DNA from: an uncultured archaeon
GTDB taxonomy: Archaea; Iainarchaeota; Iainarchaeia; Iainarchaeales; JAAZKV01
Assembly (NCBI GenBank): GCA_964551375.1
Contig: CAZKBG010000001.1
Coordinates: 180,001-212,000, forward strand
Direction of reading: 5' to 3'
Length of the DNA: 32,000 nt
Shown here: positions 4,285 through 26,349 of the stretch, one piece after another
How positions within the stretch are numbered: position 1 is the first letter of the stretch
How the letters are laid out: every line of letters starts with the position of its first letter
Translations under genes and position numbers: made by a program
The notes under the pieces: generated by a model
The model's database searches: none
Told to the model about the DNA's origin: nothing
Seen by the model: the letters and a program-made list of their open reading frames with translations, nothing else

Positions 4285-4905
4285 ATGGATATTGTAAAAA
4301 AGATGTGGATTACTCTTGCAGTTTTGATGATTCTTTTTGAGCTTTATTATTCCTTATTTCCTATTCCTGCCTCGACTGAAGCAATAAGATTTTTTGCAGT
4401 AAGCGGATTTCTTCTTTTGTGCGTTTCGCTTATTATAGGCCCTCTTGTGACATTTTTCCCAAAGAAATTTGCCCCGCTTCTTAAAGAAAGAAGAGCAGTG
4501 GGAGTAATTGCATTTATTTTAATTTTAGCACACTTTGCGCTTGTTTTTGCATTGGCTTATAACTACAATCTGGTATTTTTATTTTCGATTTTCTCAATTG
4601 TAATTGCAGTTCCTGCAATGATAATTTTATTCCTGCTGGCATGCACTTCATTTGACAAAGCAATTCGAAAAATGGGATTTTCAAAATGGAAACTGCTGCA
4701 AAGGTTCAACTATATCGCATTTATACTTTCATTTGTTCACTTTGTGCTGAATTTAAACGGATACTTTGTTCTTCTCCCTTCGGGGCTTGTGTTTGTAAAT
4801 ATTGCGGAAGTGCTGCTAATAATTCTGGGAGTTATAACAATAATCCTTCAAATAGCGGGGTTTTTCAAAAAAAGACAGCAAATCAATCAGTCAAAATCAA
4901 ATTAG
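4285..4905 (+). CDS. Ferric-reductase-like transmembrane domain protein (MsrQ/YedZ-like, about 6 TM)
   Basis: 206-aa polytopic ORF with a GGTGA Shine-Dalgarno 7 nt upstream. ERRAVGVIAFILILAHFALVF and LLACTSFDKAIRKMGFSKWKLLQRFNYIAFILSFVHFVL align by eye to MsrQ/FRD motifs (RR-x-LG...H and TS...W-x-x-LH-R-x-x-Y...H). One canonical His is replaced by Gln. Confidence 0.55.
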   Translation: MDIVKKMWITLAVLMILFELYYSLFPIPASTEAIRFFAVSGFLLLCVSLIIGPLVTFFPKKFAPLLKERRAVGVIAFILILAHFALVFALAYNYNLVFLFSIFSIVIAVPAMIILFLLACTSFDKAIRKMGFSKWKLLQRFNYIAFILSFVHFVLNLNGYFVLLPSGLVFVNIAEVLLIILGVITIILQIAGFFKKRQQINQSKSN

Positions 4906-5910: not shown

Positions 5911-7800
5911 TTATTTTGTTTTTTCTTTGACAAGCTCTTTTAGAAGCTTTTTGAGGCTTATTGTCGCGGCATTAATTACTCTGTCAGCTCCGCCGTAATA
6001 GATTGTCAATTCATCATCTCTTAGCGTGCTTCCGCAAGGGAAAACAACATTATGAACAATTCCGTTTAACTCGTCTTGCGTTTCAGGCTCAAGAATGTAA
6101 TAACTCAATCTTGAAATAACTTTAGTCGGGTCGTTTAAGTCAAGAAGAGCCGCTCCCACTCTATAGACAAAATCATGGCTTGAAATTCCGTGATAAATTA
6201 AAAGCCATCCCTTATCGGTTTTAATAGGAGGGCATGAAGCGCCTATTTTCTTATCATCCCATGCGTTTTCTCGCGGAAGCATTAAAACATTTAAGTCAAG
6301 CTTTTTGTTTTTGAACAAAAGATCCTTTTCTTTTGAAATGCAAATCGAGTTATTCACGCGGTGAATAATATAATAATGCCCGTTAATGTGCTCTGGAAAA
6401 ATGCATGCATCCTTATCATCAACGCCTTCTGGAGAAATTACCACAGGATAAGTCCACTTCCAATACTTATTCACAAAATCTTTTGCCCGAATTGAAGTAA
6501 TTGCAACTCTTGGAAGCTTTCCATCATAAGCTGTGTAAAGCATGTAAATTGTTCTTGTGCTTCCAATTTGAACAAGCCTTGGGTCTTCGCAGCCCATTTC
6601 CTCAAATTTAGCGCGCGGAACATAAACAGGTTCTTTTAATTTTTCTACGGTAAAATCATCCCTAACCTGCGCATATCCAAGCACTGATTTATCAGTATCA
6701 GAAAGCGCCCTGTAAATTAAATGCGTTTTTCCGTCAATTAATAATGAAGCAGGGTTAAAGGTAGCTTTTTTTTCCCATGGATTATTTGGATTTGGCGTAA
6801 TAAGAGGGTTTTGTTTTATCCGCTTAAACTGCGCAAATCCTGGGCGAAGAATTGCGTCAAGAAGGTCATTGAGCTTGCATGTCGCAAGGCAGGAAGTGGT
6901 GTCTGCTGCGCCGTAGTAAACATAAAGTTTATCGCCCTTAACCATTGCCCCCGAAGGAAAAACAATATTTGGCACTTGCCCATAAAGCTCATACTCTTTT
7001 TTTGGAACCAAGAGAGGAAATTTAGTATATCCAAGAACTTTTTGCGGGTCATCTAAATCAAGCAATGCGGCTTCAACCCTAAATTCTTTTGAGTTGGAAA
7101 AATATCCTTTAATATAAGAATAAAAAATAAGCCATCCTTTGTCAGTTCTAATCGGCTGGGAGCCAAGCTCCACCTGATCATCAGGGCTTCTTTGAAGGGG
7201 AAGAACAAAATCATTAACAGAGAAAAAATAATTGTTCCAAAAAGTATCCGACCAAATCTGGCTCTCTTTGTCAAAATAAGCAATGCAGATTTTTGCAGGA
7301 GGGGCATCAGTGTTTATTGTAACAAGCGCCGCCATTTTTCCGTTAACTTTATCAGAAAAAAGCGCCATTGCTTTTGAATTAAAAGTAGTCACTGGGTGTT
7401 TTTCAAATTTCTTAAAATCTTGCGTTACCGCAACCCCCACTTTTATGCCCTGCGCTGAAAAAGGATATGTTGAAAGCGCTGTGTAAAAAATATAGTATTT
7501 ATCATTAAATTTTGTAATCCTTGGATCTTCACAGCCGTATTTCTCCCAGTCAAATTCAGGAGCAATTATTTGGCGGTGGGTTGCAAAATGAACTCCATCA
7601 ATGCTTTCGCTTAATCCAATGGTTGAAACAGTGGAAGGATAATTTTGAAGAATTCGCGAGCGCCCAATTGCTCTGTAAACCAAATTAATCCTGTCTTCAA
7701 AAACCGCAGGGCATGCGTTAAAAGTGGCTTCGCTTTCCCACTCAACATCAGGGTCAGGCATTATTAACGGATTACGCGGGGAACGCTCAAGCATTATCAT
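5911..7800 (-). CDS. Tandem two-domain GH130 family protein (beta-mannoside phosphorylase-like, PH1107-related)
   Basis: Two complete GH130-like modules are present. The first has RNPLIMPDPDVEWESEATFN...GCEDPRITK...YYGAAD. The second has QNPLITPNPNNPWEKKATFN...GCEDPRLV...YYGGAD. The ORF track starts at GTG 7809. I prefer ATG 7800 because a perfect AAGGTGAT Shine-Dalgarno lies 5 nt upstream, inside the end of the preceding gene. Confidence 0.8.
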   Translation of the reverse strand: MIMLERSPRNPLIMPDPDVEWESEATFNACPAVFEDRINLVYRAIGRSRILQNYPSTVSTIGLSESIDGVHFATHRQIIAPEFDWEKYGCEDPRITKFNDKYYIFYTALSTYPFSAQGIKVGVAVTQDFKKFEKHPVTTFNSKAMALFSDKVNGKMAALVTINTDAPPAKICIAYFDKESQIWSDTFWNNYFFSVNDFVLPLQRSPDDQVELGSQPIRTDKGWLIFYSYIKGYFSNSKEFRVEAALLDLDDPQKVLGYTKFPLLVPKKEYELYGQVPNIVFPSGAMVKGDKLYVYYGAADTTSCLATCKLNDLLDAILRPGFAQFKRIKQNPLITPNPNNPWEKKATFNPASLLIDGKTHLIYRALSDTDKSVLGYAQVRDDFTVEKLKEPVYVPRAKFEEMGCEDPRLVQIGSTRTIYMLYTAYDGKLPRVAITSIRAKDFVNKYWKWTYPVVISPEGVDDKDACIFPEHINGHYYIIHRVNNSICISKEKDLLFKNKKLDLNVLMLPRENAWDDKKIGASCPPIKTDKGWLLIYHGISSHDFVYRVGAALLDLNDPTKVISRLSYYILEPETQDELNGIVHNVVFPCGSTLRDDELTIYYGGADRVINAATISLKKLLKELVKEKTK

Positions 7801-7805
7801 AAAAA

Positions 7806-9548
7806 TCACCTTGGAACGCTCATGCGTAGAGGCTTAAGAGAAATCTCATGCCCAAGCCTTAACTGTTCAAGGAAAGTATCAATATCAGCTTTAGCAGCGC
7901 AGGTTACAGAATCTGCTCCGCCGTAATAAACAATCAAATCACTTTCTTTAATTACGGCCCCGCATGAATAAACAATTCCGGGCTTAAATCCGTTATTTTC
8001 ATACTCCCTGTCAGGAATCATAATGGGCTTCATTGATTTATGCAGAACTTTTTCAGGATTCTTGAGGTCAAGAAGCATTGCGCCGAGCAAATATTTTCCA
8101 GGATACTGCTTTCCAAGCGCGTGATATAAAACAAGCCATCCGTCTTTAGTTTTAATTGGAGGAGGACCAATTCCCCTAATTCGCGTGTCCCAGGTTTTTT
8201 TATTTTCAGCAAAAGCATACTGGCTCTTAATGCAGGTCTTGTCGTCAAAATCAAGGCTCTCGCAATATTCAATTGCGATTTCAGGATTAATGCTGTGAAG
8301 AATTGCATATTTGCCCTTTACTTTTTCAGGAAAAATTGTCCAATTTTTATGCACTTCATTTGGAGGAGAAATAATTACGGGCTTTGTCCATTTCCATTTC
8401 TTATTTAAAAAATCATCAATCTTAATTGAAGAAGCGGCAACTTTGGGGTGCCCGTCAAATGCAGTGTAAAGCATGTAAAGCCTGTCCCCTATTTTTGTAA
8501 TTCTTGGATCCTCGCATCCCGCAAGACTGTATCCGCTTCTCCACTGACTTGAAACATCCCCTGGCTGTGCGGAGCACACATGAACATAAATCGGCTCCTT
8601 AAGCCTCTCAACAAGGTTTAGTCCATCCTCGCTTGAAGCGTACCCGAAAACGGAAACCATTTCTTTTCCTGTGGCGCGGTAAACAAAATGAATTTTACCG
8701 TCATGCTCAACCGCAGCGGCATTAAAAGTATATTCTGATTCCCACGGATTTTCAGCCCTTGGGGAAATAATAGGATTCTCCCTGTGCTTTTCAAGAACAG
8801 GAAAAGTCGGGCGGTGAGTGAACTTGCATCCTGAAAGCATAACTCCTTTTTTCGCATTCCAATACATGTTTAATTTATTGTTGAAATAAATCATTCCAAT
8901 AGGAGAAAGAACGCTTTTTTTTGCTTCAGGCTCCCACACAGGTACATCAGCGCGCCAAAGCATCCTTTCCGGATTATTAATGTCAAACAAAATCGCCCCC
9001 ACTGTGTACGCGCTTGCTTTTTTTGAATAATAAAATAAAACTATCCCGTCGCCTGTTACGCAGGCAGTTCCAACAATCAAATCCCCTGTGTCAAAATACT
9101 TTTTCCTTGGCTCAATTACTGTGTCAAGAGTTTTCCACTTTTTCAAATCCTTTGAAACAGCAATATTTATTTTCTTGTCCCCAAAATAAGAGATGTATTG
9201 TTTTTTTGATTCATCAAAAAGAATCACTGAAGTTTCTTTTAACTCAAATACACTCGCGCTCTCCCACTTAAGAAGGCTGGGAGTTTTAATAAAAAAAGAA
9301 TCAATTTTTCCTGCAATGTTTTTTGCCTTAAACGTGATTAAATAATCTTTTTTTATTTGAGATATTCTCAAATCTTTTGAATCAAGAGCAAGCTCTTTGA
9401 CTTTTTTTATATCAATTCTAAGCGGTTTTAAGCTCAAATCATCAGGCATATATCCTGATGCCGCAATTAATTCTGACTGAGATTTATAAATAAAATAATT
9501 GCGCGTTTCTGACGCGAAGAACCCTTTACCCTCAATAGACGAATTCAT
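7806..9548 (-). CDS. GH130 family protein: degenerate N-terminal GH130-like module plus intact C-terminal module
   Basis: The C-terminal half (ENPIISPRAENPWESEYTFN...GCEDPRITK...VYYGGAD) is a full GH130 module. It is clearly paralogous to the C-terminal module of the neighbouring gene (FLNKKWKWTKPVIISP versus FVNKYWKWTYPVVISP). The N-terminal roughly 250 aa keep propeller-like segments (GAILFDINNPERMLWRADVPVWEPE) but have no CEDPR motif. Confidence 0.75.
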   Translation of the reverse strand: MNSSIEGKGFFASETRNYFIYKSQSELIAASGYMPDDLSLKPLRIDIKKVKELALDSKDLRISQIKKDYLITFKAKNIAGKIDSFFIKTPSLLKWESASVFELKETSVILFDESKKQYISYFGDKKINIAVSKDLKKWKTLDTVIEPRKKYFDTGDLIVGTACVTGDGIVLFYYSKKASAYTVGAILFDINNPERMLWRADVPVWEPEAKKSVLSPIGMIYFNNKLNMYWNAKKGVMLSGCKFTHRPTFPVLEKHRENPIISPRAENPWESEYTFNAAAVEHDGKIHFVYRATGKEMVSVFGYASSEDGLNLVERLKEPIYVHVCSAQPGDVSSQWRSGYSLAGCEDPRITKIGDRLYMLYTAFDGHPKVAASSIKIDDFLNKKWKWTKPVIISPPNEVHKNWTIFPEKVKGKYAILHSINPEIAIEYCESLDFDDKTCIKSQYAFAENKKTWDTRIRGIGPPPIKTKDGWLVLYHALGKQYPGKYLLGAMLLDLKNPEKVLHKSMKPIMIPDREYENNGFKPGIVYSCGAVIKESDLIVYYGGADSVTCAAKADIDTFLEQLRLGHEISLKPLRMSVPR

Positions 9549-9695
9549 CTTACCAGACCGAAAAATTGAAAAATTACTAAAAGGATTAGTATTTACGGTT
9601 ATTTAAGCATTTTGTATTCAAATCAAAGTTCAAAAAATCCTTTATTTTAAAGAAAGCATTGTTTAAAAACGTGGAATGCATTAATTGTGCAGGTT

Positions 9696-11030
9696 ATGGA
9701 AAATAGCACAAAACTCCCAAGCGTGTTTAGGGAAAGCGATATCCGCGGAATTGTCGGCAGGCAAATTACTCCTGAATTTGCAAGAAAAATAGGAAATGCC
9801 GTTGCAAAAACTTTCAAATCAAACTATTATGTCCTTGGAAGGGATAAGCGCTCAACAAGCAGGGCTCTTTCAAGAGCTATTAGAAAAGGCCTTCTTGAGT
9901 CAGGCGCTAATGTTTATGACCTTGGAGAAACAATTTCTCCCCTTGCTTATTTTGCGGCAAGGCACTACAACTGCCCCGGAGTATTCATTACCGCTTCGCA
10001 CAATCCAAAAGAGTATAACGGATTCAAAATTATTGGAAGCGACGGGTTAACAAAAGGAATTAGAAACGGGCTTGACAAAGTGAAGAAAGAGTTTGATTTA
10101 AACCAGCCGTTAAAGAAAACAAAAGGGAAAATTATACGCCCAAATATATTCCATGATTACAAACTTAACGTGCTTCACTTTGATAGAGGAATAACTCCAG
10201 CAAAAATTGTTCTAAATAACGGAGGAAACACGTCAGGAAAATTGCTGAAAAAAATTCTTGAAGGAAAAAGAGTTAAAATTATTGAAATTAACCCAAAAAG
10301 AGGGTATATTTCAAACCCGCTTATTGATAAGGGAAAGGAAGTGAGCAGAAAAATACTTGCAAAGAAAGCGGATTTTGGAGTCGCTTTTGACTTTGACGGC
10401 GACAGAATATTCTTTTTTGACGAGAAAGGAAACAAGCTGGATAACTCATCAATTGCCGCGCTGATTGCAAACTTTTTGCTTGGTGAAAAGAAAAGCGGAA
10501 CGATTCTTTATGACGTTCGAAGCGACTGGATAATTAAGGACACTGTCAAAACATGCGGAGGAAAATCACTGATGGTTGAAGTAGGGCACACAAATGTAAA
10601 AGAAAAAATGAAAAAAAATGACGCTATTTACTGCGGCGAAATATCAGGGCACAATTACTTTAGAGAAAGCGGCTACACCGAATCTTCATTAATGCCCATT
10701 ATAATAATTTTAAGCATTATATCAACTGAAAAGAAAACCTTGTCTGAATTAATAAAACCATTTAGAAAAAATCATCTTCTTAATGAAACAAATTACACAG
10801 TGGATGACATTAATCAGACTATTAATGATGTTTCAAAACTAATCAAAGGCGGGAAAAGGAGCACGCTTGACGGATTAAGAGTGGATTTTAATGATTGGTG
10901 GTTCAGCATCAGAGGCTCAAAGAACGAGCCGCTGATTAGGCTTAATATGGGCGCAAAAAATAAAGAAGTTTTGGAAAAAAAGCTGGCGCTTATTGAATCA
11001 GCTGTAAAAAAACACTATTTGCGCCCGTAA
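9696..11030 (+). CDS. Phosphomannomutase/phosphoglucomutase (alpha-D-phosphohexomutase family)
   Basis: TASHNPKEYNGFK is the catalytic phosphoserine loop. FDFDGDRIFF is the Mg-binding D-x-D-G-D-R motif. GEISGHNYF is the sugar-binding GE-x-SGH motif. The ORF track starts at GTG 9687; ATG 9696 (MENSTK...) is preferred. Confidence 0.85.
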   Translation: MENSTKLPSVFRESDIRGIVGRQITPEFARKIGNAVAKTFKSNYYVLGRDKRSTSRALSRAIRKGLLESGANVYDLGETISPLAYFAARHYNCPGVFITASHNPKEYNGFKIIGSDGLTKGIRNGLDKVKKEFDLNQPLKKTKGKIIRPNIFHDYKLNVLHFDRGITPAKIVLNNGGNTSGKLLKKILEGKRVKIIEINPKRGYISNPLIDKGKEVSRKILAKKADFGVAFDFDGDRIFFFDEKGNKLDNSSIAALIANFLLGEKKSGTILYDVRSDWIIKDTVKTCGGKSLMVEVGHTNVKEKMKKNDAIYCGEISGHNYFRESGYTESSLMPIIIILSIISTEKKTLSELIKPFRKNHLLNETNYTVDDINQTINDVSKLIKGGKRSTLDGLRVDFNDWWFSIRGSKNEPLIRLNMGAKNKEVLEKKLALIESAVKKHYLRP

Positions 11031-11429: not shown

Positions 11430-12305
11430 ATGGATGCGCTCCTGATTGAGATAAATCACCACATTGGAAAGGAAGTTGCGCGCATTAGCGGGATTGAATA
11501 CCAGCAAATGGTTCTTGAGCCGTTTCCTGACAACGAATCATATATACGTTTCCCGTTTCCAGTAAAAGGAAGAAAAATATTTTTGCTTGCTGACATGGCA
11601 AAAAAGCCAAATGAAATGCTTTCAATACTTTTACTTGCAGCAAAAACACTGCGAAAATTAAAAGCAAAGAGAATTTACCTAATTGCGCCTTACATGGTTT
11701 ACTTAAGACAGGACCATGCATTCCATCCTGGAGAAGCGGTGTCAGGATTTATTGTATCAGATTTTGTAAGCAGCTTATTTGACGGAATAATAACAATTGA
11801 CCCTCATCTTCACAGAGTAGAATCAATGAGGGGATTTTTCAGATGCAAAACACAAAAGCTTACCGCGACAAAAAAGCTTTCTGAATACTTTTCAAAAAGA
11901 GATGCAGTGCTTGTGGGACCAGACGCTGAAAGCAAGCAGTGGATAAAAGCAATTGCAGAAAATTGCGGTAAAGAATTTGTTGTAGCAAGCAAAACAAGGC
12001 ACTCAAGCAGGCATGTTGAAGTGGAAATTAAGCGCGGAAATGTAATTCTTGAAGGAAAAACCGCAATAATAGTTGACGATATTATCAGCACAGGGCATAC
12101 TATACTTGAAGCTGCAAAAGCTTTGAAGAAAGAAAAAGTAAAAGGAATTGAATGCTATGCTGTGCACGGATTATTTATGGAAGGCGCTCTTGAGAAACTT
12201 AAAAAAAGCAGAATAAAAGTCGGCGCAACTAATACTCTCAAAAATCCTGTTGAAGTAATTGATATTGCTCCTGAAATTGCTGAAGGTGTTAAAGCGTGGC
12301 TGTAA
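11430..12305 (+). CDS. prs: Ribose-phosphate pyrophosphokinase (PRPP synthetase), archaeal type
   Basis: Motifs FPDNESYIRF, APYMVYLRQD, ITIDPHLH and the PRPP-binding loop IIVDDIISTGHTI are present. Overall order matches the archaeal Prs I remember from Methanocaldococcus. Confidence 0.85.
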   Translation: MDALLIEINHHIGKEVARISGIEYQQMVLEPFPDNESYIRFPFPVKGRKIFLLADMAKKPNEMLSILLLAAKTLRKLKAKRIYLIAPYMVYLRQDHAFHPGEAVSGFIVSDFVSSLFDGIITIDPHLHRVESMRGFFRCKTQKLTATKKLSEYFSKRDAVLVGPDAESKQWIKAIAENCGKEFVVASKTRHSSRHVEVEIKRGNVILEGKTAIIVDDIISTGHTILEAAKALKKEKVKGIECYAVHGLFMEGALEKLKKSRIKVGATNTLKNPVEVIDIAPEIAEGVKAWL

Positions 12306-13564
12306 ATCAAACTGAAAAAAAGAATGCAGCGCTAAAAGCATTAAGATTAATTCCCCAAAAAGGACTTGTGGGGTTAGGCTCAGGAACCACAGTGGATACT
12401 CTTGCAGGGCTGATAAATAAGGCAAACAAATCCGAATTCATTTGCATATCAAAGAATGCTAAAAAAATACTTCAAAAAAGAGGGTTGAAATTAATCGAAA
12501 AGGAAAATCCTGTTATTGCAATTGACGGGGCGGACAGCTTTGTAAAACAAAATGGAAGGTTAATTGCCATTAAAGGCGCGGGCGCATTTGATTTTACTAA
12601 TGAGAAAAAACTTGATTACTCTGCAAAAAAATTTGTTATAATTGCTGGAAAGAGTAAATTAGAAAATAAGGACCACACAGTATTTGTTGAAGTAACAAAA
12701 AAAGCGCTTAATACTGTCATTAAGCAGCTGAAAATTTCAGGGCTTTTGGTTAAAAAGGTTCCAAAATCAAACCCCCTATTAAAAGGAAAGAAAAATGTAT
12801 TTGTTCAAATTACTCCCAAAGCAGGAACAAATTTTTCAGAACTTGAACACATGCTTGATAACACCGCTGGCGTTATTGGAAATGGAATATTCTCAAAGAA
12901 AAGATTTGATTTAATAATTGGAAAAGAAGAGCCTTTTGTTGAGACAAGGCTTCAGGTTGCCCTTGATTTTGATGAAGAGTTCCCCGCGGTTCAAACAGCA
13001 AAACAGGTTAAGGATTATGTTGATATAATTGAAATAGGAACTCCGCTTGTAAAAGCGCTGAATGAAAAACATATTATAAAAAAACTTTCAAAATACAAGA
13101 AAAAATTATTTGTGGATCTAAAAACAATGGATGCGGGTTATTTTGAATCAAGCCCTGCTATAAAGCATGGGGGAGATTATGTTTCAGTTCTTGGAGTGGC
13201 ATCAGACGAAACAGTGAAAGGAGTGCTGAAAAACGGCGCCGATAGGGTTGTAGTGGATTTAATTGGATGCAAAGATGTTGCGCTTAGAATAAATCAGCTG
13301 AAAAAATTAGGCGCGGTTAATTTTGAAGTTCATGCGGCAATTGATGACCAGGCAAAAGGCAAAACACCGCTTGAAGAAGTTAGAAAAGCATCTCAAATCA
13401 AAGGAATTAATATTTGGGCAGCAGGCGGGATAGGATTATCTTCGCTTGATGCAGTAATGGAATACAGGCCAGCAGTAGTAGTTGTCGGAGGGGCAATAAC
13501 TCACTCAAAAGACAGAAAACAAGCTGCAAAAGATATAAAAGAAAGAATAGAAGAATTAAGTTGA
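12296..13564 (+). CDS. Fusion protein: ribose-5-phosphate isomerase A (N-terminal) plus 3-hexulose-6-phosphate synthase (C-terminal)
   Basis: GTG start overlaps the prs stop by 10 nt. aa 1-215 carry RpiA motifs: VGLGSGTT, IAIDGADSF, IKGAGAF..NEK, FVIIAGKSKL and AGVIGNGIF. aa 216-422 carry HPS / OMP-decarboxylase-family motifs: LQVALDF, DIIEIGTPLVK, DLKTMDAG, VHAAIDDQ, AAGGI and VVVGGAIT. Confidence 0.8.
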   Translation: MAVNQTEKKNAALKALRLIPQKGLVGLGSGTTVDTLAGLINKANKSEFICISKNAKKILQKRGLKLIEKENPVIAIDGADSFVKQNGRLIAIKGAGAFDFTNEKKLDYSAKKFVIIAGKSKLENKDHTVFVEVTKKALNTVIKQLKISGLLVKKVPKSNPLLKGKKNVFVQITPKAGTNFSELEHMLDNTAGVIGNGIFSKKRFDLIIGKEEPFVETRLQVALDFDEEFPAVQTAKQVKDYVDIIEIGTPLVKALNEKHIIKKLSKYKKKLFVDLKTMDAGYFESSPAIKHGGDYVSVLGVASDETVKGVLKNGADRVVVDLIGCKDVALRINQLKKLGAVNFEVHAAIDDQAKGKTPLEEVRKASQIKGINIWAAGGIGLSSLDAVMEYRPAVVVVGGAITHSKDRKQAAKDIKERIEELS

Positions 13565-15868: not shown

Positions 15869-15990
15869 TTGCAATTTTTGGCCAAGCTATTTTGACTAAG
15901 TTATGCTAATTTTTTCTTTGAAATGGAAGGGTATTAAAACTCTAACAAAACTAATTTTTCTTAGCAAAGCCACTAAAATAAGGTAATATT

Positions 15991-16074
15991 GCGGAGGTGG
16001 CAGAGCGGTCTAATGCGCACGCCTGGAAAGCGTGTTCTCGAAAGGGAGCCCGAGTTCAAATCTCGGCCTCCGCG
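15991..16074 (+). tRNA. tRNA-Ser (anticodon GGA), class II with long variable arm, no encoded CCA
   Basis: Hand-folded cloverleaf. Acceptor GCGGAGG/CCTCCGC, discriminator G. Anticodon stem CACGC/GCGTG, loop CTGGAAA. Variable arm TCTC-GAAA-GGGA. T arm CCGAG-TTCAAAT-CTCGG. Confidence 0.9.
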
Positions 16075-16162
16075 TAATAAAACAAGTTCAAATCCAATGT
16101 CCTTAACTCAAACAGATTATATTATATATCTCAAAAGGTTATTATTGGTAAAGGGTGTTGAA

Positions 16163-16762
16163 GTGAAGAAAGTTGCTTTTTTTATAATTATTTTGATTTT
16201 TGGGTTGTTACTTTTTGGGTGTGATAACAAACAACAAAGCCAAGGTGCTCAACAAAGTCCTCAATATTTAAATTATATTAATCCAAAAGAAAATCTTACA
16301 ATTAGTTATCCGGTTGGATGGGCATATAATGAAAGCCCAGACCAATATGGATTGAGCGTTTGTTTTAATCCACCTAGTGTGCGAGGGTGTGTAATGCAAG
16401 CATATATTGTAAATTTCTCTACTATTGACCAATCGCATTGGCTTTATGGGGTTGTAAGCGAAAGTAGCTCAATTGAGGAAATTAAAGATGCTTATATCAA
16501 CACACTTAAGCCAAAAAACTCCAGCATGGATATGAATGTAACCAAAGTTGAAAAAACCACCTTGTTAGGGAATGAAGCATATCATATTGAATTTGTTGCA
16601 TCAATAAAAACGTCTTTTGAAACATTAGAATCAAAAGAGATTCATATTATTTCAAAAAACAATACATCTATTATAATACTCAAATATTCTTATCCCCCAA
16701 AAGACTTTGATTCATTTAAGCCGCAGTTTGACATATTTGTTTCATCTTTCATCCACCCATAA
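16163..16762 (+). CDS. Putative lipoprotein, function unknown
   Basis: The ORF-track N-terminus (15989) runs through the tRNA gene and is rejected. The in-frame GTG at 16163, preceded by AAGGGTG, gives VKKVAFFIIILIFGLLLFGCDNK, a signal peptide with a lipobox. ATG 16097 is an alternative start. The mature part is beta-rich with no family recognised. Confidence 0.5.
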   Translation: MKKVAFFIIILIFGLLLFGCDNKQQSQGAQQSPQYLNYINPKENLTISYPVGWAYNESPDQYGLSVCFNPPSVRGCVMQAYIVNFSTIDQSHWLYGVVSESSSIEEIKDAYINTLKPKNSSMDMNVTKVEKTTLLGNEAYHIEFVASIKTSFETLESKEIHIISKNNTSIIILKYSYPPKDFDSFKPQFDIFVSSFIHP

Positions 16763-20095: not shown

Positions 20096-23000
20096 ATGGA
20101 TCTATTTGGTTCAAGCGAAGGGTTAAACGACTCTTTTGACGACGCTGGCGACAAATTTTCAGGATTTGTTGAAGGAATAAAGAAAAATCCTCTTCCTGTT
20201 ATATTAGTAATAGTAATAGCGGCGCTTATTGTTTATATTATCATCAGCAGTATTTCAGCTCCAAAAGAGCCTGAAGAAGTATCTCCTGTTGTGATCAACG
20301 GCTCTGGAGTGGCAGGCACTATTACTGTTTTAAGAAACGGCGAAGTGGTGAGCCAAGTTGATTTAAACGGGGACATACTTGAACTTGCGCCTGATGCAAA
20401 CAGAAATTTGAATGCAAGTATTAGCGTTGCAGGAAGAAGAAATCTAATTCCAAGATCTGTCACACTCACTTCAGGAAATAGAAGAACAGTGGTGACAATT
20501 GACCCAGCTCGAACAGTAATTGATGATGAAGGAAATATTCACTACCATTTTGATTCAAACAGCGGAGCAGGATCAGGAGAAATTATAGTTGACCCTGATA
20601 CAGGAACAACAACAGTAGTAATTGACCCTAATTCAGGCGGAATGATACAATGCGATGAAGGCACAGTTCTTGAGAACGGCTCATGCGTAATAACAGCAGA
20701 TATTGATTTTACGGACTCAGACACAGGAGACGGAATTGTTATCACAATCCCATTCATTCCTGTTGTTGGCACAGTTCACATTGATGCTGAAGTAACGCAA
20801 GGATGCTTAACTATGAGCACTGGGTTAGTAAATGAACTCCCCTCAACTGGCGTTGTTAAATCAGAAATAAGATTAAGAAAAGTCTGCCCTGGCGCGGTTG
20901 ATGTTAATGCATCAGTTGAATGGATGAATGAAAGAATGGGAAATGTGGAAGTTGTGTTAAACAATCCTTCAGAATTATTAACTCCTTTGCCAAAGAAAGT
21001 TGCCCAATTCAGCTCAGGCGACACAATAACCGCAAAAGTTAATTTTGTTCCATTTAAAGAATTTGAAGGAAAAGTGGCTAATTTTAGAGTTAATTTCAGC
21101 ACAGGCGGGCAGAATTCGCTTGTAGCATTTGTAATACCAATTGAAAACCTTGAACAGTGCATAAAAGTAACTCCACAGCAAGTAATAGTTGCAAAAGGAC
21201 AGAATTCGGCAAATTTTGAAATTGATGTTTCTTCGTGCGGACAGAACAGCATTGATTTTGTGCTCTGTGACGGGGATAATTCATGCTCTGGAGGAGTGGA
21301 AGGCGGAATTGCATTAAGCTCAAGAGCATTCACGCTTAATTCATCAACTAATCCAAAAAGAACTGTTTCAGTGACAAGAGGAATAATTCCTGGAGCGTAT
21401 GGAATACCAATTAAAGCAAGCGTAAGCGGCTCAAAGAAAATTTACTTAGGCGAAGTTCTTGCAATAATAGAAAGAGCAGGAACAGAAACACTTTATCCAG
21501 ATAAATATGTAATATCGCTTCTTCCTAATTCAAAAGATTCTATTAGAATAACAAACACTAATTTAATTGAAGAAGTAAACATAAGCACAAGCGTGTGCAG
21601 TTTATACCAAAATTCACTCGGAAGAGGGGGAAGGTCATGGTGGAAACAATTAAGCGGAAATTTAAAGACGCTTGCAGGAGAAGGACTTTACGAGGAAGCA
21701 TTATCTTACGAACTTGGAACACTTGACAGAGTTACTGAACAAATGAGGGCAATGTCCACTCAAAAAAACCAGCTGATTAAAGACGCTTGGGTTGCATTTG
21801 ACAGACAGAAAGTAAAGGACAAAGTATGCGAAGCCCAAAGCACAGCATTTGACGCGTTTAAGGATGTAAATAAATTACAGTACTTAGTTTGGGAAGCAGG
21901 CGCAGTGGACCACACTTGCAGAGAACAGGGGCTTAACCTTGAAGACGACGCATGCAATGAAGAAGAAAAAATTGATTACCTTGCGTCGCTTGTTGCAAGC
22001 AAAATTACTGATATTAACAAAATTGTTCCTGAAATGAAAGCAGAACTTGACGACCAAAAAACTCAAATAACTAATCTTTCTATTCAAAAATGCGAAAGCG
22101 CGGCAGGATTAAGCAGCAAAAAAACAGCAGCAGTAACAGCAATAACAACAGCAAAAACAAAACTTAACGAATATGCTAACAAAGTCAACGCCGCAAGAAC
22201 AACAATGGTTGATTTTAATAAAAAACATGATGAAACTGATGAATTCTTTGACGCATTTGACGCAAATGTTCAGGAAGTAATGGATAGAATACAGCTTGCG
22301 CAGGACTTACTAAGCCAGGCTGATGAGAAGGTAAATTTGGCAATAGCAGATTATGATTCAGCTCTTGCAGCAGCTGCGATTGATGCTACTTACCTTGCAT
22401 CAAGCGATGATGCAAGCGCAGCAATGTACTTAGAACAGGCAATAATTGATTTACAGGACGCAAACGCATTGATTTACGAAGCAATTGATGAAGAAGTGGC
22501 TGCAAATGATATACTAAAATCATTCAAGCCAAAAATAGCTGAACAATACGCAAGAATTACTGCAATGATAAGCTTAATTGACAAGCTAAAAGAACAGATG
22601 CAGGAAGCAAAAACAATAGCCCAGCAGATAAAAACAAATATTGAGACAGCAAAATCAGACATTAATGGAATTATCGCGCCTGCTCAAAAAGCATGCGATG
22701 AGCGCGACCCAAGCACTGATAATGATAATAATGCCGAAACACCCGAAAATTCAGGGTGCTGCGAAATAGCAACAAATGCGCAGGCAATAGTAGATTCAAT
22801 GAGCACAGGATTTGTTGAAGAACAGATGACTGCGATTGACGAAATGATTCCAAAGATTGATTTATTAAAAACAGCAGTGAAACTTTATGAAACAAAAACA
22901 AAAGCTTACGGAGAACAATTGCCAAAAACACAGGCAACAGTTCAAAAAGCTGTTGACGCATTAAAAGTAATGACTGATAATAATGTATTCCAGCCTCCGA

Positions 23001-25327
23001 TGGACACTCTCCAGCCCGCAATTGACGCAGCTTACTGGCTAAGCGATAAAGAAGCATCATCCTCTTCAGCATCAGAATATCCATCAGGCTCAATGACTTT
23101 TAACGGAATAACAATTGACAATAAAATAATGCTTGGATTATTCGGAACAGCAGTAAGCTCCGGATTTATACAAGGAGCTTATGATGGAACAGTTTACACA
23201 ACATATTATGACACAAACGAGCCTGAAGTTGTTGATGAAGAAGTTCCTGTTGATGAAGTTGACCCATTCGCTGAAGAGCCGGTTGTTGATGATACATTTG
23301 ATGATGAATGGGTTGACACTCCTGAAGAAGAAGTGTTTGAATGCTCTGAAGCCCCAGCAAGCGAAATGCTTGAAGACTGCGATAACCAAGTAGGGTTATT
23401 ACTGCCTGATTTTAAAGTAAACTTACTAAATGCAACATCAAATGTAACAGTATCAAATCCAGCGGTTCGGGCTGAAATTACTACAACCGATGCAAAAGTA
23501 TTCGGGGTGTTTGATTCGCAGGAAGTAGGAGTAGCATTCACAAATAGTGGATTAAGCCAGAACACTTACGCAACAGTAACACTAAACGCACAGGAAGCAA
23601 TCCATGACGACCCAGTGGTTGTAGATGCAGCATTTGGGCCATTTAATGTTCCTGACGCATCAACTCAAGCTGTGTCTTATAAATATCATTTCAAATTCAA
23701 CGCAGCTCCAAGAAAAGCTGCAATATTTGCTCCAAAAGTAAGTGACTGCCAAAGCGGAATACTAAGAGGAACAAATACCGAGAGCGGACTTGCTAAAAAT
23801 GTTCTAACATGGAACTGGGCTGATGTAGCGCTTCTTGACAATTCAACTGACACGCTTGGAGACAAATACTTTGATGCAACACAGTTATCAATTTTAATTA
23901 ACGCAAGGCTTCAGAGATTGAATAATTTATTATCAACAAATACATTCAGATGCCCAAGCAACCCAGCAAGAGCAGAACTTACTTCAGTAATTCCTAGTTT
24001 TACTGGAGAAGAGCTTGAAGAAGCGGGACAAACTGGATTAACACTTGGAACACCAGCTTGCTACTTGCCTTACACTACAAGAGAGTTTGACGGCAAGCCA
24101 TCGCTATATTATTTCCTTCTTTCAAACCCAACTGTTGCAAATAATTTGGTAAATTTGGTTGACTTTAAAGCAAACCTTTCAAGAGACGGATACGGAACAG
24201 CATTCCAAAACGAATTCACTAACTTTTACAGAACACAAACAGTTGCATCAAACCCAAGCTTCCTTGACGCGCAGACAGGAACAAGCAAATACTTCTCAAA
24301 CAACACGCTTGCTTACTTCTCTTCTGAAGGAGCAAAATACGCTAAGAGCAGCACATTTGTTCTCCCTGATGCTGGAGAATACAGAGTCAGAATGAAAATA
24401 AATTTCAACAGCCAGCCGGCATTATTCACAAGCGGAAACCCTGCGTCAAAAATTACATTTGATTTATACTCAACCAATCCGATTTACTCAAATTACAGCC
24501 CGTTCTATTACACTCCTCTTGACGGACAAGTAGGATTACTAACAGGACAAACAGCGGAAGGGTACAGAGCAAAATTATCAGACGCAAAATCAATTGTTGT
24601 TAACTCTGCACAGGGGGCAATACTAAATAATATCCCATCACAAGCGCTTGTATCAATTTCCCCAATTGTTGCAGAACAACTGGACCAGTTGAATACAAAT
24701 GTGTTGTTAAGAGGAAAAATATTCTCGCTTTCAAACGCAACCCTAACTTCAGGAACTGCGCTTTTGCTTTCTCCAAATTTGTATTACGCTCAGTCAATGG
24801 CAACTCCAATAATACTTGGAACTCCAAAAACAGCGACTCCTCACAGCGCAAGATATATCATAAAAAATGACATCACAACGCTTGCTTACCCTTCATCTGA
24901 TTTCACAGTATTTAGAGCGCTAAATGACACCGACTCGACAAGAACTTCACTTGCAACCTTATCAAAAATACCAGATAAGAAATTAATTTCAAATATTTAC
25001 TCAATTGACCTTCCAACAACTAACGAACCAAATGAATGGAAACTTGGAACAGTAATTTACACTTTATCAGGAAGACCATACTATGTGTCAGGAATGAATC
25101 AGACAAAAGTTTATTCCCCAGGAAACAGACTTGGAACTGACCCTCTTGTTTCGCTATACGGAGTTCCGGGAATGAGATACAATGACGCAACAACAACACA
25201 GCTAAATTCGCTTTCACTAATTTATGATGCAGTAAAACAGGGAAGCGCATGCATCTCAAGAAACGCAGGCGAAGATATCATCTACTGGCCAGAAGATAAA
25301 ATACTTGCAACACTTCCATTAAACTAA
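20096..25327 (+). CDS. Giant (1743 aa) N-terminally anchored cell-surface protein
   Basis: Single uninterrupted ORF. aa 1-32: acidic cytoplasmic tail. aa 33-53: TM helix (LPVILVIVIAALIVYIIISSI). aa 60-515: beta-rich with paired Cys and (I/V)DPxxG repeats. aa 516-985: Ala/Asp/Glu/Lys/Gln-rich helical region. aa 1014-1031: Gly-rich hydrophobic segment. aa 1040-1098: very acidic linker. aa 1100-1743: Asn/Ser/Thr-rich beta domain. I counted about 17 N-x-S/T sequons by hand. No family recognised. Confidence 0.85.
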   Translation: MDLFGSSEGLNDSFDDAGDKFSGFVEGIKKNPLPVILVIVIAALIVYIIISSISAPKEPEEVSPVVINGSGVAGTITVLRNGEVVSQVDLNGDILELAPDANRNLNASISVAGRRNLIPRSVTLTSGNRRTVVTIDPARTVIDDEGNIHYHFDSNSGAGSGEIIVDPDTGTTTVVIDPNSGGMIQCDEGTVLENGSCVITADIDFTDSDTGDGIVITIPFIPVVGTVHIDAEVTQGCLTMSTGLVNELPSTGVVKSEIRLRKVCPGAVDVNASVEWMNERMGNVEVVLNNPSELLTPLPKKVAQFSSGDTITAKVNFVPFKEFEGKVANFRVNFSTGGQNSLVAFVIPIENLEQCIKVTPQQVIVAKGQNSANFEIDVSSCGQNSIDFVLCDGDNSCSGGVEGGIALSSRAFTLNSSTNPKRTVSVTRGIIPGAYGIPIKASVSGSKKIYLGEVLAIIERAGTETLYPDKYVISLLPNSKDSIRITNTNLIEEVNISTSVCSLYQNSLGRGGRSWWKQLSGNLKTLAGEGLYEEALSYELGTLDRVTEQMRAMSTQKNQLIKDAWVAFDRQKVKDKVCEAQSTAFDAFKDVNKLQYLVWEAGAVDHTCREQGLNLEDDACNEEEKIDYLASLVASKITDINKIVPEMKAELDDQKTQITNLSIQKCESAAGLSSKKTAAVTAITTAKTKLNEYANKVNAARTTMVDFNKKHDETDEFFDAFDANVQEVMDRIQLAQDLLSQADEKVNLAIADYDSALAAAAIDATYLASSDDASAAMYLEQAIIDLQDANALIYEAIDEEVAANDILKSFKPKIAEQYARITAMISLIDKLKEQMQEAKTIAQQIKTNIETAKSDINGIIAPAQKACDERDPSTDNDNNAETPENSGCCEIATNAQAIVDSMSTGFVEEQMTAIDEMIPKIDLLKTAVKLYETKTKAYGEQLPKTQATVQKAVDALKVMTDNNVFQPPMDTLQPAIDAAYWLSDKEASSSSASEYPSGSMTFNGITIDNKIMLGLFGTAVSSGFIQGAYDGTVYTTYYDTNEPEVVDEEVPVDEVDPFAEEPVVDDTFDDEWVDTPEEEVFECSEAPASEMLEDCDNQVGLLLPDFKVNLLNATSNVTVSNPAVRAEITTTDAKVFGVFDSQEVGVAFTNSGLSQNTYATVTLNAQEAIHDDPVVVDAAFGPFNVPDASTQAVSYKYHFKFNAAPRKAAIFAPKVSDCQSGILRGTNTESGLAKNVLTWNWADVALLDNSTDTLGDKYFDATQLSILINARLQRLNNLLSTNTFRCPSNPARAELTSVIPSFTGEELEEAGQTGLTLGTPACYLPYTTREFDGKPSLYYFLLSNPTVANNLVNLVDFKANLSRDGYGTAFQNEFTNFYRTQTVASNPSFLDAQTGTSKYFSNNTLAYFSSEGAKYAKSSTFVLPDAGEYRVRMKINFNSQPALFTSGNPASKITFDLYSTNPIYSNYSPFYYTPLDGQVGLLTGQTAEGYRAKLSDAKSIVVNSAQGAILNNIPSQALVSISPIVAEQLDQLNTNVLLRGKIFSLSNATLTSGTALLLSPNLYYAQSMATPIILGTPKTATPHSARYIIKNDITTLAYPSSDFTVFRALNDTDSTRTSLATLSKIPDKKLISNIYSIDLPTTNEPNEWKLGTVIYTLSGRPYYVSGMNQTKVYSPGNRLGTDPLVSLYGVPGMRYNDATTTQLNSLSLIYDAVKQGSACISRNAGEDIIYWPEDKILATLPLN

Positions 25328-25389
25328 AGGGATCAATTCTAATCCGTTAAACTAATTAGTTATCCAATACAAAAAATTATCCGCAAATG

Positions 25390-25411
25390 GACTTCATTAA
25401 GTTTTGAAGTC
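25390..25411. terminator. Hairpin between convergent genes (giant gene and Zn-ribbon gene)
   Basis: GACTTCA (25390-25396) pairs with TGAAGTC (25405-25411) across an 8-nt loop. Only a short T run (CTTT) follows on the plus strand. Confidence 0.3.
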
Positions 25412-25420
25412 TTTGAGGAG

Positions 25421-25675
25421 TTAGATTTTTGCTTTTGATGAAAAAGGATCATCATCGCCTGAAGGATTCATTTCAACAGAATCCTCAGAATAATCATCGT
25501 CATCATCAGTATTTACTCGCTCGCTTGGGGACTTTGCAGCAACTGATTCAAGAATATACTTAAGCTCCGACAAGCACTGCTCGCAAATATCCTTATTCCC
25601 AATAGTTCTCCCCTTGCAGCCGCCATCGCGCTGTTCTTCACCAACGAAAGTATCGCAAAACATACAGTTAGACAT
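25421..25675 (-). CDS. Small zinc-ribbon protein with acidic C-terminal tail
   Basis: The internal ATG at 25675 gives MSNCMFCDTF...DICEQCLSEL, i.e. CxxC...CxxC. The disordered tail follows: NTDDDDDYSEDSVEMNPSGDDDPF. Confidence 0.5.
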   Translation of the reverse strand: MSNCMFCDTFVGEEQRDGGCKGRTIGNKDICEQCLSELKYILESVAAKSPSERVNTDDDDDYSEDSVEMNPSGDDDPFSSKAKI

Positions 25676-25704
25676 TTTTACCACCAAATACTTAACCAAT
25701 TGAA

Positions 25705-25729
25705 TTTACCTATTAACTTTACCTATTAA
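25705..25729. repeat. Tandem direct repeat, 2 x 12 nt, in the promoter region of the Zn-ribbon gene
   Basis: TTTACCTATTAA-C-TTTACCTATTAA lies 30-54 nt upstream of the minus-strand ATG at 25675. Confidence 0.35.
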
Positions 25730-25893
25730 ATTGAAGCGGCAGATAAATAAAAACCTTCTCTTTTTTTGCAAAAATTAACCCTCAATTTTACTTAAAATCT
25801 AAATAAATCATGACTAACCCATATATTCAACAACAATTTGCCCTAAGCAACAATTAAAATCCCTAATTGAGTATATTGTAGCAAGGTGGATGA

Positions 25894-26349
25894 ATGGATT
25901 ACAATGCGGAACTTGATAAACTAATACAGAAGATTATGCCTGAAGATGTAATTATGCTTGAAAAAGAACTAAGAGGACTCCTTGAAAGAGAAGTTTATGA
26001 AAGAGGATTATACTTTATGGAACTAAGAAAATTTGACGGAGAAATTTTTGAAACAGTTAAATGGCTCTCTGAACAGGAATCCACCCACGCAAATGTATTA
26101 ATGCGCGTTCTTGCAAGAGGAAATATAATAGCAAAAGAGCCTCAATTTGAATTCAAACCCCTAAAAGCAAGCACTGTTGAAATAATAAAAATGAATGTTC
26201 AAGGCGAAAGAAAAGCAATTCAAGATTATACTCTTGCAATCAACAAAACCAAATCAACCGAACTTAAAAAAGTCCTTGACATGATAATGTCTGAAGAATT
26301 TGACCACATAAGAAGACTAAGCGCATTTACTATGAAAGATGAGTTGTAA
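25894..26349 (+). CDS. Ferritin-like di-iron four-helix-bundle protein
   Basis: Two E...ExxH pairs are present: EREVYERG...EQESTHANVL and QGERKAIQDY...SEEFDHIRRL. An AGGTGG Shine-Dalgarno lies upstream. Confidence 0.6.
   Translation: MDYNAELDKLIQKIMPEDVIMLEKELRGLLEREVYERGLYFMELRKFDGEIFETVKWLSEQESTHANVLMRVLARGNIIAKEPQFEFKPLKASTVEIIKMNVQGERKAIQDYTLAINKTKSTELKKVLDMIMSEEFDHIRRLSAFTMKDEL

Follow-up and report, generated by a model that had tools for sequence, protein, structure and literature searches.

What does the largest gene in a stretch of archaeal DNA encode, and on which side of the membrane does its product work? The stretch (the window, 32,000 nucleotides in full) comes from an uncultured member of the Iainarchaeota (contig CAZKBG010000001.1, positions 180,001 to 212,000), and the gene is a single open reading frame (ORF) at 20096..25327 on the plus strand. 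A first-pass annotation made from the letters alone had described it as one ORF of 1743 amino acids (aa), the largest in the window, and both the ORF and its translation bear this out. The encoded protein (the query) has a mass of 189 kDa and is acidic, with an isoelectric point (pI) of 4.5. At the base composition of the window, stops are expected at 6.9% of codons, and 1743 codons would stay free of them by chance with a probability of ~1e-54. L006, a contig of a related metagenome-assembled genome (MAG) labelled 'uncultured archaeon', is syntenic with the whole neighbourhood, giant gene included; protein identity between the two is 74% for the giant gene and mostly 74-92% for the flanking genes, with one small ORF at 40%. 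For the giant gene, the ratio of nonsynonymous to synonymous substitution rates (dN/dS, window versus L006) is 0.14 for the whole gene, and each of its folded domains falls within 0.10-0.28. Together, the open frame, the synteny and the dN/dS of 0.14 established a genuine coding gene, under constraint from end to end.

The first-pass annotation had also asked whether the ORF might be an artefact joined at an internal break. Its colinear architecture is repeated in ~27 independently assembled cluster representatives and in the syntenic L006, and all folded domains are under constraint; an assembly chimera is thus ruled out. We likewise rejected a viral or mobile origin: no relatives were found on IMG/VR viral contigs, and the context in the window is housekeeping and syntenic.

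Relatives were sought with a word-indexed homologue search and with a profile of the C-terminal domain (the head), run exhaustively with HMMER over the representatives of 50%-identity clusters. The word-indexed search returned the query itself, the 74% relative, six full-length homologues (27-31% identity, 1684-1758 aa) and four partial matches, the last being longer proteins that align only in parts. At E<=1e-3, the head profile, which the query matches full-length at E ~1e-267, hit 653 cluster representatives, of which 383 also pass E<=1e-30. In the 150 matches listed, the head stands at the extreme C-terminus. Full-length matches fall into size classes of ~1630-1890 aa and ~2200-3100 aa, and shorter ones look like fragments. 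With full-length homologues and 653 head-domain clusters in public data, the earlier label 'ORFan' is wrong. The accompanying statement that no family is recognised holds, with no match in PDB sequences and none above noise in Pfam, NCBIfam or PHROGs for the whole protein, its homologues and all members of the helical and head alignments, and our search of the literature found no description of a giant-protein family of this kind.

Employing hidden Markov models (HMMs) of sub-regions, run locally, we sorted the architectures into two types. Type B comprises the query and ~27 representatives, in which five HMMs are colinear: a transmembrane (TM) helix, a membrane-proximal beta region (Nt), a conserved beta domain (Nb), a helical region, a junction segment and the head follow one another. 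The features of the type are found in the query, namely a signal anchor, a helical insert of ~450-490 aa and the motif GxxGAYxGxVYT between Nb and head. Type A (>100 representatives) has a TM helix, ~1100 aa of CarboxypepD_reg/Big_1/MG-like repeats, Nb, a linker and the head, and is annotated at best as 'carboxypeptidase regulatory-like domain-containing protein'. In a type A protein of Ca. Diapherotrites/Iainarchaeum (MBI4043422.1, P0009; 2362 aa), BLASTP aligned Nb (aa 1200-1459) and head colinearly with the query; in another relative (P0010), the head was colinear. Like the query, P0009 has an N-terminal signal anchor, Nb (29-30% identity), the head and the cysteine framework. Unlike the query, type A carries the ~1100 aa of repeats before Nb and often an extra insertion in the head, and at the junction it has a TM-grade hairpin, or a shorter helical insert between two hydrophobic segments, where the query has an arm of ~480 aa. 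Judged from these alignments, the query belongs, as a 'type B' member, to a large superfamily of giant surface proteins in archaea that is as yet unnamed and unstudied.

The topology of the protein was read from features shared across the family. The Kyte-Doolittle 19-residue maximum of 3.22 at aa 35-53 marks the sole TM-grade window of the query; every homologue has one there, and no type B member has another. Because basic residues immediately precede this helix and most homologues are without an A-x-A-type site after it, the query is most likely a type II-like signal-anchor protein with an intracellular N-terminus and an uncleaved anchor. Among 157 sequences, a cysteine column in the head (~aa 1611) and the cysteine of a C-terminal 'CxK' tail occur together in 137 and are jointly missing from 14; just one of the two is found in the remaining 6. 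The joint losses include one clade with Ser and 'LxG' and the clade of the query and P0002 with both cysteines deleted. Since the pair covaries like a disulfide, it indicates that the head is extracellular. The type B arm, which is Ala/Ser/Leu/Thr-rich family-wide with just 5.9% Lys+Arg and has invariant loop cysteines, is closer in character to secreted than to cytoplasmic helical bundles. The strong helix with its basic flank, the only one of TM grade in any type B member, supports the earlier proposal of a surface protein anchored at its N-terminus. Neither a C-terminal hydrophobic segment nor a PGF motif was found in the giant protein.

The reading that we favour, by a little more than an even chance, is an N-terminally anchored envelope spike or adhesin built of immunoglobulin (Ig)-like domains, a helical arm and a conserved head as putative binding end. 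As far as the sequence tells, the acidic tail would lie in the cytoplasm and the uncleaved signal anchor would hold the protein in the cell's own membrane. The remainder would stand outside, as a chain of Ig-like sandwiches followed by a 'body' of Nb plus head, which the Ig-like domains would raise off the membrane. An Ala/Ser/Thr-rich helical bundle of ~15 nm with a cysteine-stapled tip would be inserted at the Nb/head junction. The whole protein would thus stand out from the envelope as a spike, with an adhesive or a structural role. Its segments are listed in Table 1.

Table 1. Segments of the giant protein, with their positions in the window and the evidence by which each was delimited
Segment	Residues (aa)	Position	Strand	Basis
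Acidic tail, predicted cytoplasmic	1-32	20096..20191	+	Translation; pI 4.1; ends KKNP before the membrane helix
Single predicted signal-anchor TM helix	~33-54	20192..20257	+	Kyte-Doolittle 19-residue maximum
Membrane-proximal beta region 'Nt'	55-229	20258..20782	+	AlphaFold strands, moderate-low confidence
Conserved beta domain 'Nb'	230-512	20783..21631	+	Invariant columns, HMM, BLASTP, Ig-like model
Helical arm	513-1000	21632..23095	+	AlphaFold helices, pLDDT ~90
Cysteine-bracketed loop	C867...C888-C889	22694..22762	+	Low pLDDT; between helices aa 765-868 and 886-901
Junction segment 'Hyd'	1001-1040	23096..23215	+	Invariant residues; helix pLDDT 86-89
Acidic hypervariable linker	1041-1087	23216..23356	+	Composition, divergence
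C-terminal head domain (~660 aa)	1088-1743 + stop	23357..25327	+	Profile search, AlphaFold

Much of the segmentation proposed in the first-pass annotation is recovered here: the acidic N-terminal tail, the one signal-anchor helix, ~450 aa of beta-rich sequence, a Gly-rich hydrophobic segment (at aa 1009-1030, moderately hydrophobic) and an Asp/Glu-rich linker, with 42% Asp+Glu over aa 1036-1095. Acidic tails with basic residues beside the TM helix are also seen in homologues, and the tail and helix together show a dN/dS of 0.12 (window versus L006). The beta-rich part (aa ~70-460) is modelled as a chain of about four Ig-like sandwiches (AlphaFold, Foldseek), with Nb at a per-residue confidence (pLDDT) of 80-90. 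Nt contains (I/V)DPxxG motifs and an insert with C186/C197, and its pLDDT falls below 50 at aa 154-185. It is the fastest-evolving folded part (dN/dS 0.28; 21% identity to distant homologues). Nb, upstream of the head, is matched by its HMM in the query at 1e-130 and is common to the giant type A paralogues, with local HMM matches in >100 of them. It holds the invariant NLEQC (aa 351-355), a C381-x9-C391-x5-C397 cluster and C501. Of the closely spaced cysteine pairs noted earlier, those of C381/C391/C397 are invariant across homologues; C186/C197 (CDEGTVLENGSC) is specific to the query lineage, other members being without the pair. The acidic linker has a dN/dS of 0.48 and 7% identity to distant homologues; its length ranges from ~0 to ~185 aa among type B members, and the long acidic form is specific to the lineage of the query.

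Heavy N-glycosylation, which the first-pass annotation had suggested, is not supported. The query has 18 N-x-S/T sequons against 18.1 expected from its composition, and over 27 family members the ratio of observed to expected is 1.18 in the beta ectodomain, 0.72 in the helical region and 0.94 in the C-terminal head. Sequon density equals the expectation from composition both in the query and family-wide, and we rejected the idea on these counts.

The head is the part that defines the superfamily. Its motifs are KYHFKFN, LxWxW, YxDATQ, CPxNP, RDGYGxxFQxxF, NYSPFYYTPxDG, ATP and WPE. Across 157 divergent sequences, His1198, Asp1364, Asp/Glu1373, Arg1487, Asn1533, Arg1539 and Asp1627 are invariant or nearly so, and the aromatic clusters WxW and NYSPFYY are conserved. 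AlphaFold modelled the domain as a compact mixed alpha/beta fold (pLDDT 86.6, predicted TM-score (pTM) 0.86). It had been described as an Asn/Ser/Thr-rich beta domain; the composition is indeed rich in Asn/Ser/Thr/Leu, and the predicted fold is mixed, not all-beta. No match was found in Pfam, NCBIfam or PHROGs, nor by sequence or profile search of the PDB. Foldseek returned nothing significant from the PDB (best E 0.06, TM-score 0.07, galectin-type sandwiches) or from BFVD (best E 0.09); the confidently predicted head thus matches no solved or viral-predicted structure in these two databases. Position and conserved residues indicate that the head is most likely the conserved functional end of the protein, a putative binding domain. 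It might recognise a glycan or a protein, carried by a partner cell, by a substrate or by the paralogous partner protein. A polymorphic toxin was considered and rejected; the C-terminal domain is the most conserved part of the protein rather than a variable one, and there is no immunity-like gene downstream.

The same residues could instead belong to a surface-tethered enzyme, the head being a catalytic domain of new fold on a stalk that would process glycans or proteins, for example, in extracellular polymers or in the cell's own envelope. Clusters of aromatic and polar residues are typical of carbohydrate-active sites, and the many near-invariant polar residues and aromatic clusters across the 157 sequences fit such a role, as do the placement of the head at the extreme C-terminus among the listed members and the glycan metabolism encoded elsewhere in the window (two GH130 genes, PGM/PMM and an HGSNAT-like acyltransferase). 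However, these glycan genes are neither adjacent to the giant gene nor conserved beside its homologues, and no enzyme family was matched by Pfam, NCBIfam, PDB sequence profiles or Foldseek, whose best, insignificant galectin-type hits would at most suggest binding. We regard a catalytic head as improbable.

The helical arm had been described as one unbroken stretch. The region is helical over aa ~500-992; in the AlphaFold model it consists of about nine helices, the two longest of 92 and 104 residues, with breaks at aa 603-621, 660-668, 761-764 and 869-885. Runs of ~90-130 residues (aa 531-659, 669-760, 765-868 and 886-992) are separated by short loops. From these helix lengths we infer an antiparallel four-strand bundle ~14-15 nm long. 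Its base would be formed by both chain ends, beside the Nb/head junction, and the loops at aa 660-668 (with C666) and 867-889 would jointly form the distal tip. Within type B, C888 does not vary and C666 hardly varies; the dN/dS of the arm is 0.11. The pTM of the N-terminal model is 0.46, a value at which the relative placement of domains is unreliable. The arm had no Pfam match and no PDB sequence match, searched as a single protein or as profiles, and the N-terminal multi-domain model gave only generic tandem Ig/ASH/MG-like matches in a Foldseek search of the PDB (TM-score ~0.1). Weak matches to ParB, GAS and EGF_Tme5 were set aside as helical or cysteine-pattern noise. A thioester protein of the A2M type was also rejected. 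CxEQ occurs just once, as CREQ at aa 608 within an insert specific to the lineage, and is not conserved, the closest homologue, P0002, reading TCGAQEEQ there; no TED or A2M match was found in Pfam, and the MG-like Foldseek matches are weak (E ~1e-4, TM-score ~0.08).

Between arm and head lies the junction segment Hyd. Its Gly-zipper helix (NKIMLGLFGTAVSSGFIQGAYD) comes after a small beta hairpin at aa 999-1008 and before the motif GxVYT; G1014, G1027, A1028, Y1029, G1031, V1033, Y1034 and T1035 are invariant. This junction is the most telling feature of the protein, and its counterpart in type A clarifies what it may be. In short-linker type A proteins, which are without the arm, the junction reads SVC-DWG-acidic, a Gly-Ala-rich segment a, a loop, segment b and (G)EDPC...LxDYxINL. 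The loop is short and either uncharged or Lys-containing, segment b reaches a Kyte-Doolittle value of 3.0, and the whole makes a TM-grade hydrophobic helical hairpin with acidic outer flanks. In three other type A proteins (P0039, P0051, P0070), segments a and b are separated by an Ala/Ser/Thr-rich helical insert of 300-350 aa with 'CC' motifs; type B has ~480 aa of comparable helical sequence with a conserved 'GCC'. Hyd occupies the position of segment b, which in type A stands immediately before the EDPC...LPDYxINL motif. In type B, segment b is retained as the highly conserved 'GLxGTAxSxGFxxGAYxGxVYT', and segment a is degenerate and, in the query, fully deleted. An ancestral membrane hairpin of type A may thus have been replaced by, or expanded into, the type B arm, its second helix persisting only as the weakly hydrophobic Gly-zipper segment at aa 1009-1030.

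Could this segment nevertheless cross the membrane? Its Kyte-Doolittle value is 1.22 in the query and 0.93 on average in the family, and exceeds 1.5 in no type B member. Because hydropathy is low in every type B member, aa 1009-1030 cannot span a membrane. The query also lacks the first segment (a) that would pair with it, and one extra TM helix would leave the disulfide-bearing head in the cytoplasm. A second TM helix was therefore rejected, and the Gly-rich segment is best seen as a remnant of the type A hairpin, retained for a structural purpose at the foot of the arm. The conserved flanks on either side of the arm (aa 464-501 and 1085-1107) were both poorly modelled when the two halves of the protein were folded separately, which is consistent with their pairing together. 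Conserved cysteines number seven in Nb and five in the head, and these numbers would allow an inter-domain disulfide C501-C1095.

A separate observation concerns the type A junction itself. In P0041, P0079, P0097 and P0009, a conserved Asp-Pro-Cys ('EDPC' or 'DDPC') directly follows the hydrophobic hairpin; the type B counterpart is 'EDC', with the proline missing. Asp-Pro bonds serve some self-cleaving modules, and by analogy autoprocessing at the type A EDPC junction is conceivable.

The hydrophobic junction gives rise to another reading, that of a membrane-active contact device whose Gly-zipper element inserts into the membrane of another cell, with the bundle as a deployable arm and the family mediating cell-cell bridges or the uptake of nutrients from a host. 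The group to which the organism belongs has many episymbionts, and a long Ala/Ser/Thr-rich bundle beside a small hydrophobic hairpin and helix recalls toxins of the ClyA/Hbl type. Viral fusion peptides are Gly/Ala-rich in composition, like the type A hydrophobic segments, and the query segment GLFGTAVSSGFIQGAYDG resembles what we take to be the influenza HA2 fusion peptide (GLFGAIAGFIENGWEG). For Nanohaloarchaeota, giant SPEARE proteins have been proposed in which a pore-forming toxin-like domain is predicted (PMC6642349). Against this stand the weak hydrophobicity of the type B segment, described above, and the full loss of segment a in the query; the TM-grade hairpins of type A, for their part, would be caught in the membrane of the producer during Sec export. 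The order of elements is also unlike that of class I fusion proteins, with an N-terminal anchor and the hydrophobic segment after the helices. Neither Pfam nor the top 50 Foldseek matches, which Ig-like domains dominate, contained HlyE or HBL, and viral contigs held no relative. We give this device little credence. A bolder form of the idea appears very improbable. It posits a new cell-contact machine in which a conserved extracellular body, Nb plus a head of novel fold, would bear centrally the Gly-zipper hairpin (type A) or the 15-nm arm derived from it (type B), and in which an adjacent A/B pair would jointly enter the membrane of a partner cell or fuse with it, giving DPANN archaea access to a host. 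If true, it would be a route for Diapherotrites-like DPANN archaea to the cytoplasm or lipids of a host, and a membrane-insertion system neither viral nor fusexin, without a homologue in the PDB.

Relatives of the giant gene often stand side by side. Of ten homologous loci with enough flank, seven have a second giant paralogue adjoining the type B gene, encoding a type A-like protein of ~2100-2200 aa that has the second half of the head in common with it. In two of the seven (L007, L014) the pair is convergent; in L001, L003, L008, L016 and L017 the paralogue is upstream on the same strand. In Iainarchaeum loci, two or three type A genes stand in tandem. The MAG of L006 has its second type B paralogue on another contig, L015 (identity of 38% in its best segment by tblastn and, with BLASTP, of 29% across 1430 aa).

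Such clusters would suit an S-layer-like coat, in which types A and B jointly build the envelope, Nb plus head making the canopy or lattice contacts and the type B bundle or type A hairpin serving as pillar or anchor, by analogy with SlaA/SlaB of Sulfolobales. In most loci two or three paralogous giant genes are in tandem; orthologues are conserved, syntenic and under purifying selection; the protein is large, acidic and rich in Ig-like domains; and a rigid helical element of the length of a pseudoperiplasmic spacer is predicted. The accessible portion of 10.1101/2024.05.28.596244 names no Iainarchaeota S-layer protein, and the layer of this group may be unidentified. However, searches of Pfam and NCBIfam with the whole protein and its parts, of the kind the first-pass annotation had called for, matched no known S-layer, adhesin or cell-wall family (neither MSTP/DUF1608-type, S_layer_N/C nor SlaA-like domains). 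The anchor is N-terminal and probably uncleaved, in place of a signal peptide with a C-terminal anchor. With no S-layer domain, C-terminal anchor or PGF motif, the query does not appear to be a classical archaeal S-layer protein, in keeping with what had been stated before. Genomes have several divergent paralogues (27-38% identity), and many polar residues of the head are invariant; both would suit a biochemical site better than lattice contacts alone. We therefore consider a coat rather unlikely, though it deserves more weight than the enzyme or the membrane-active device.

Returning to the spike or adhesin, a number of points weigh against it. In type A proteins with long inserts, Lys-rich flanks lie on the insert side of the hydrophobic segments, and by the positive-inside rule would place the insert in the cytoplasm, which fits poorly with an extracellular type B arm. 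The head has no recognisable fold or family, so that 'binding' rests on its position and conserved residues, with which an enzymatic role is equally compatible. The bundle, its tip and the docking of Nb to the C-terminal domain are deduced only from helix lengths and pLDDT patterns and are to that extent unreliable. No partner paralogue is adjacent in the window or in its closest relative, L006; because it is missing beside both genes, adjacency is frequent in the family and not a defining trait. Finally, the neighbours are unrelated housekeeping genes, which give no functional clue.

Some of the adjoining genes represent a third architecture of ~2100-2200 aa (L003 1557-7886, L008 295-6660, L016 235-6846 and L014 6594-12854 on the minus strand). 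In these proteins the TM helix is preceded by a conserved N-terminal motif on the cytoplasmic side, YxFFEDKWYxxLxxV...DRIIPSF. Of the head they retain just the second half, and they show no Nb match and no mid-protein hydrophobic hairpin. In L001, a 590-aa protein (6096-7868, plus strand) is encoded between the type A-like and the type B giant genes; it is hydrophobic near its N-terminus, ends in a TM helix and matches no Pfam domain. Directly downstream of the giant gene of the window, a 92-aa ORF (25421-25699, minus strand) has Cys-x2-Cys-type motifs and an acidic C-terminus; it has the look of a zinc ribbon without a Pfam match and is conserved (82%) and syntenic in L006.

As to the organism, related loci are found in GTDB species representatives labelled 'archaeon' or 'Candidatus Iainarchaeum archaeon', and the best named relatives of the malic enzyme encoded nearby belong to MAGs labelled 'archaeon' and 'Candidatus Diapherotrites archaeon'. 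MAGs of these archaea come from groundwater samples, for example JGI 3300037810 and SRR18595301. Contigs with homologues reach ~0.85-0.99 Mb, and this points to a small genome for these archaea. Host attachment, which the first-pass annotation had proposed, would be a candidate role for the giant protein; host dependence is uncertain for the Diapherotrites/Iainarchaeota lineage. The window encodes a fair amount of central metabolism. Its genes include those for PEPCK, malic enzyme and an aminotransferase; PGM/PMM, two GH130 proteins and the HGSNAT-like acyltransferase; an RpiA-OMP decarboxylase fusion and PRPP synthase; and a thioredoxin system, pirin, rubrerythrin and an SPFH protein.

Several of these genes are of interest in themselves. 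The fusion, a 422-aa ORF at 12296-13564 (plus strand) with Rib_5-P_isom_A (aa 48-212) and OMPdecase (aa 217-414), looks unusual and overlaps the PRPP synthase gene (11430-12305) by 10 bases. The tandem GH130 genes (5911-7809 and 7806-9548, both on the minus strand, with a 4-base overlap) belong to the beta-1,4-mannooligosaccharide phosphorylase family; in each, the best GH130 stretch begins after ~250-340 residues. With the adjoining PGM/PMM gene (9687-11030), they point to a module for scavenging mannosides. A cytochrome b5-like haem-binding protein (3707-4258, plus strand) is followed by a ferric-reductase-like TM protein (4285-4905, plus strand), a putative membrane redox pair that would be unexpected in a reduced DPANN genome. 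A PsbP-like ORF (15989-16762, plus strand), unusual in itself for an archaeon, is called from a TTG at 15989; since this start overlaps a same-strand tRNA-Ser(GGA) (15990-16075), the true start has to be further downstream. Cumulative GC skew peaks at ~24 kb (~24000-26000) and then falls steadily, and beyond 26.5 kb the genes switch from mostly plus to all minus, coinciding with the fall. The peak may reflect gene orientation only, or mark a replication landmark.

A few cultivated lineages apart, little is understood of how DPANN archaea build their envelopes and make contact with other cells, and our search of the literature found no study of envelope or contact proteins for Iainarchaeota/Diapherotrites. 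The gene points to a large superfamily (at least 653 head clusters, 1600-3100 aa, often in tandem pairs or triplets) without a curated name. Defining the family offers targets for metaproteomics, labelling in cryo-electron tomography and recombinant assays, namely the head, the arm and the hydrophobic junction. The replacement of a membrane hairpin by a long soluble helical bundle would be an unusual evolutionary step. Should the protein prove an ordinary adhesin or coat protein, the gain would lie mainly in annotating a sizeable 'hypothetical' block of groundwater archaeal genomes.

Among known systems, MSTP-like S-layer proteins are reported in several DPANN phyla in the accessible portion of 10.1101/2024.05.28.596244. 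As described there, these DUF1608-type proteins are, like the query, DPANN envelope proteins made of beta sandwiches; the query has no sequence match to them and differs in size, anchoring, and helical and C-terminal domains. SPEARE proteins (3300-8500 aa), whose defining domains are a serine protease, laminin-G adhesion domains, toxin-like domains and a restriction endonuclease in the cytoplasm, have been proposed for host contact, and one variant is anchored near its N-terminus (PMC6642349). They share with the query very large size, a mostly extracytoplasmic location, a membrane anchor, adhesion-type domains and an origin in DPANN archaea, whereas the query has no serine protease, laminin-G, toxin-like or type III restriction-endonuclease domain in Pfam and no sequence relationship to them.

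The toxins ClyA, Hbl and Nhe are soluble secreted proteins of 35-45 kDa. They would resemble the query in combining an elongated Ala/Ser/Thr-rich bundle of >10 nm with a short hydrophobic beta-hairpin/helix element (both predicted in the query); in the query, however, the bundle is inserted in an anchored protein of 189 kDa and the hydrophobic element is below TM grade. The HlyE and Bacillus_HBL families of Pfam gave no match, even at E<=10, in any of eight helical-domain sequences. A class I viral fusion glycoprotein was rejected on the N-terminal anchor, the hydrophobic segment placed after the helices, the lack of viral relatives and the absence of a BFVD match. SlaA/SlaB of Sulfolobales and tetrabrachion of Staphylothermus have parallel coiled-coil stalks, a C-terminal TM anchor and a cleaved signal peptide. 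The query differs from these in its N-terminal anchor and apparently antiparallel mid-protein bundle, and shows no sequence or Pfam relationship to them; its family shares with them the plan of large glycoprotein-type envelope proteins in which beta-sandwich domains are joined to a long helical stalk that spaces them from the membrane, often encoded by adjacent genes. Giant surface proteins as such are already known from DPANN archaea, and among them the query represents a new, uncharacterised type.

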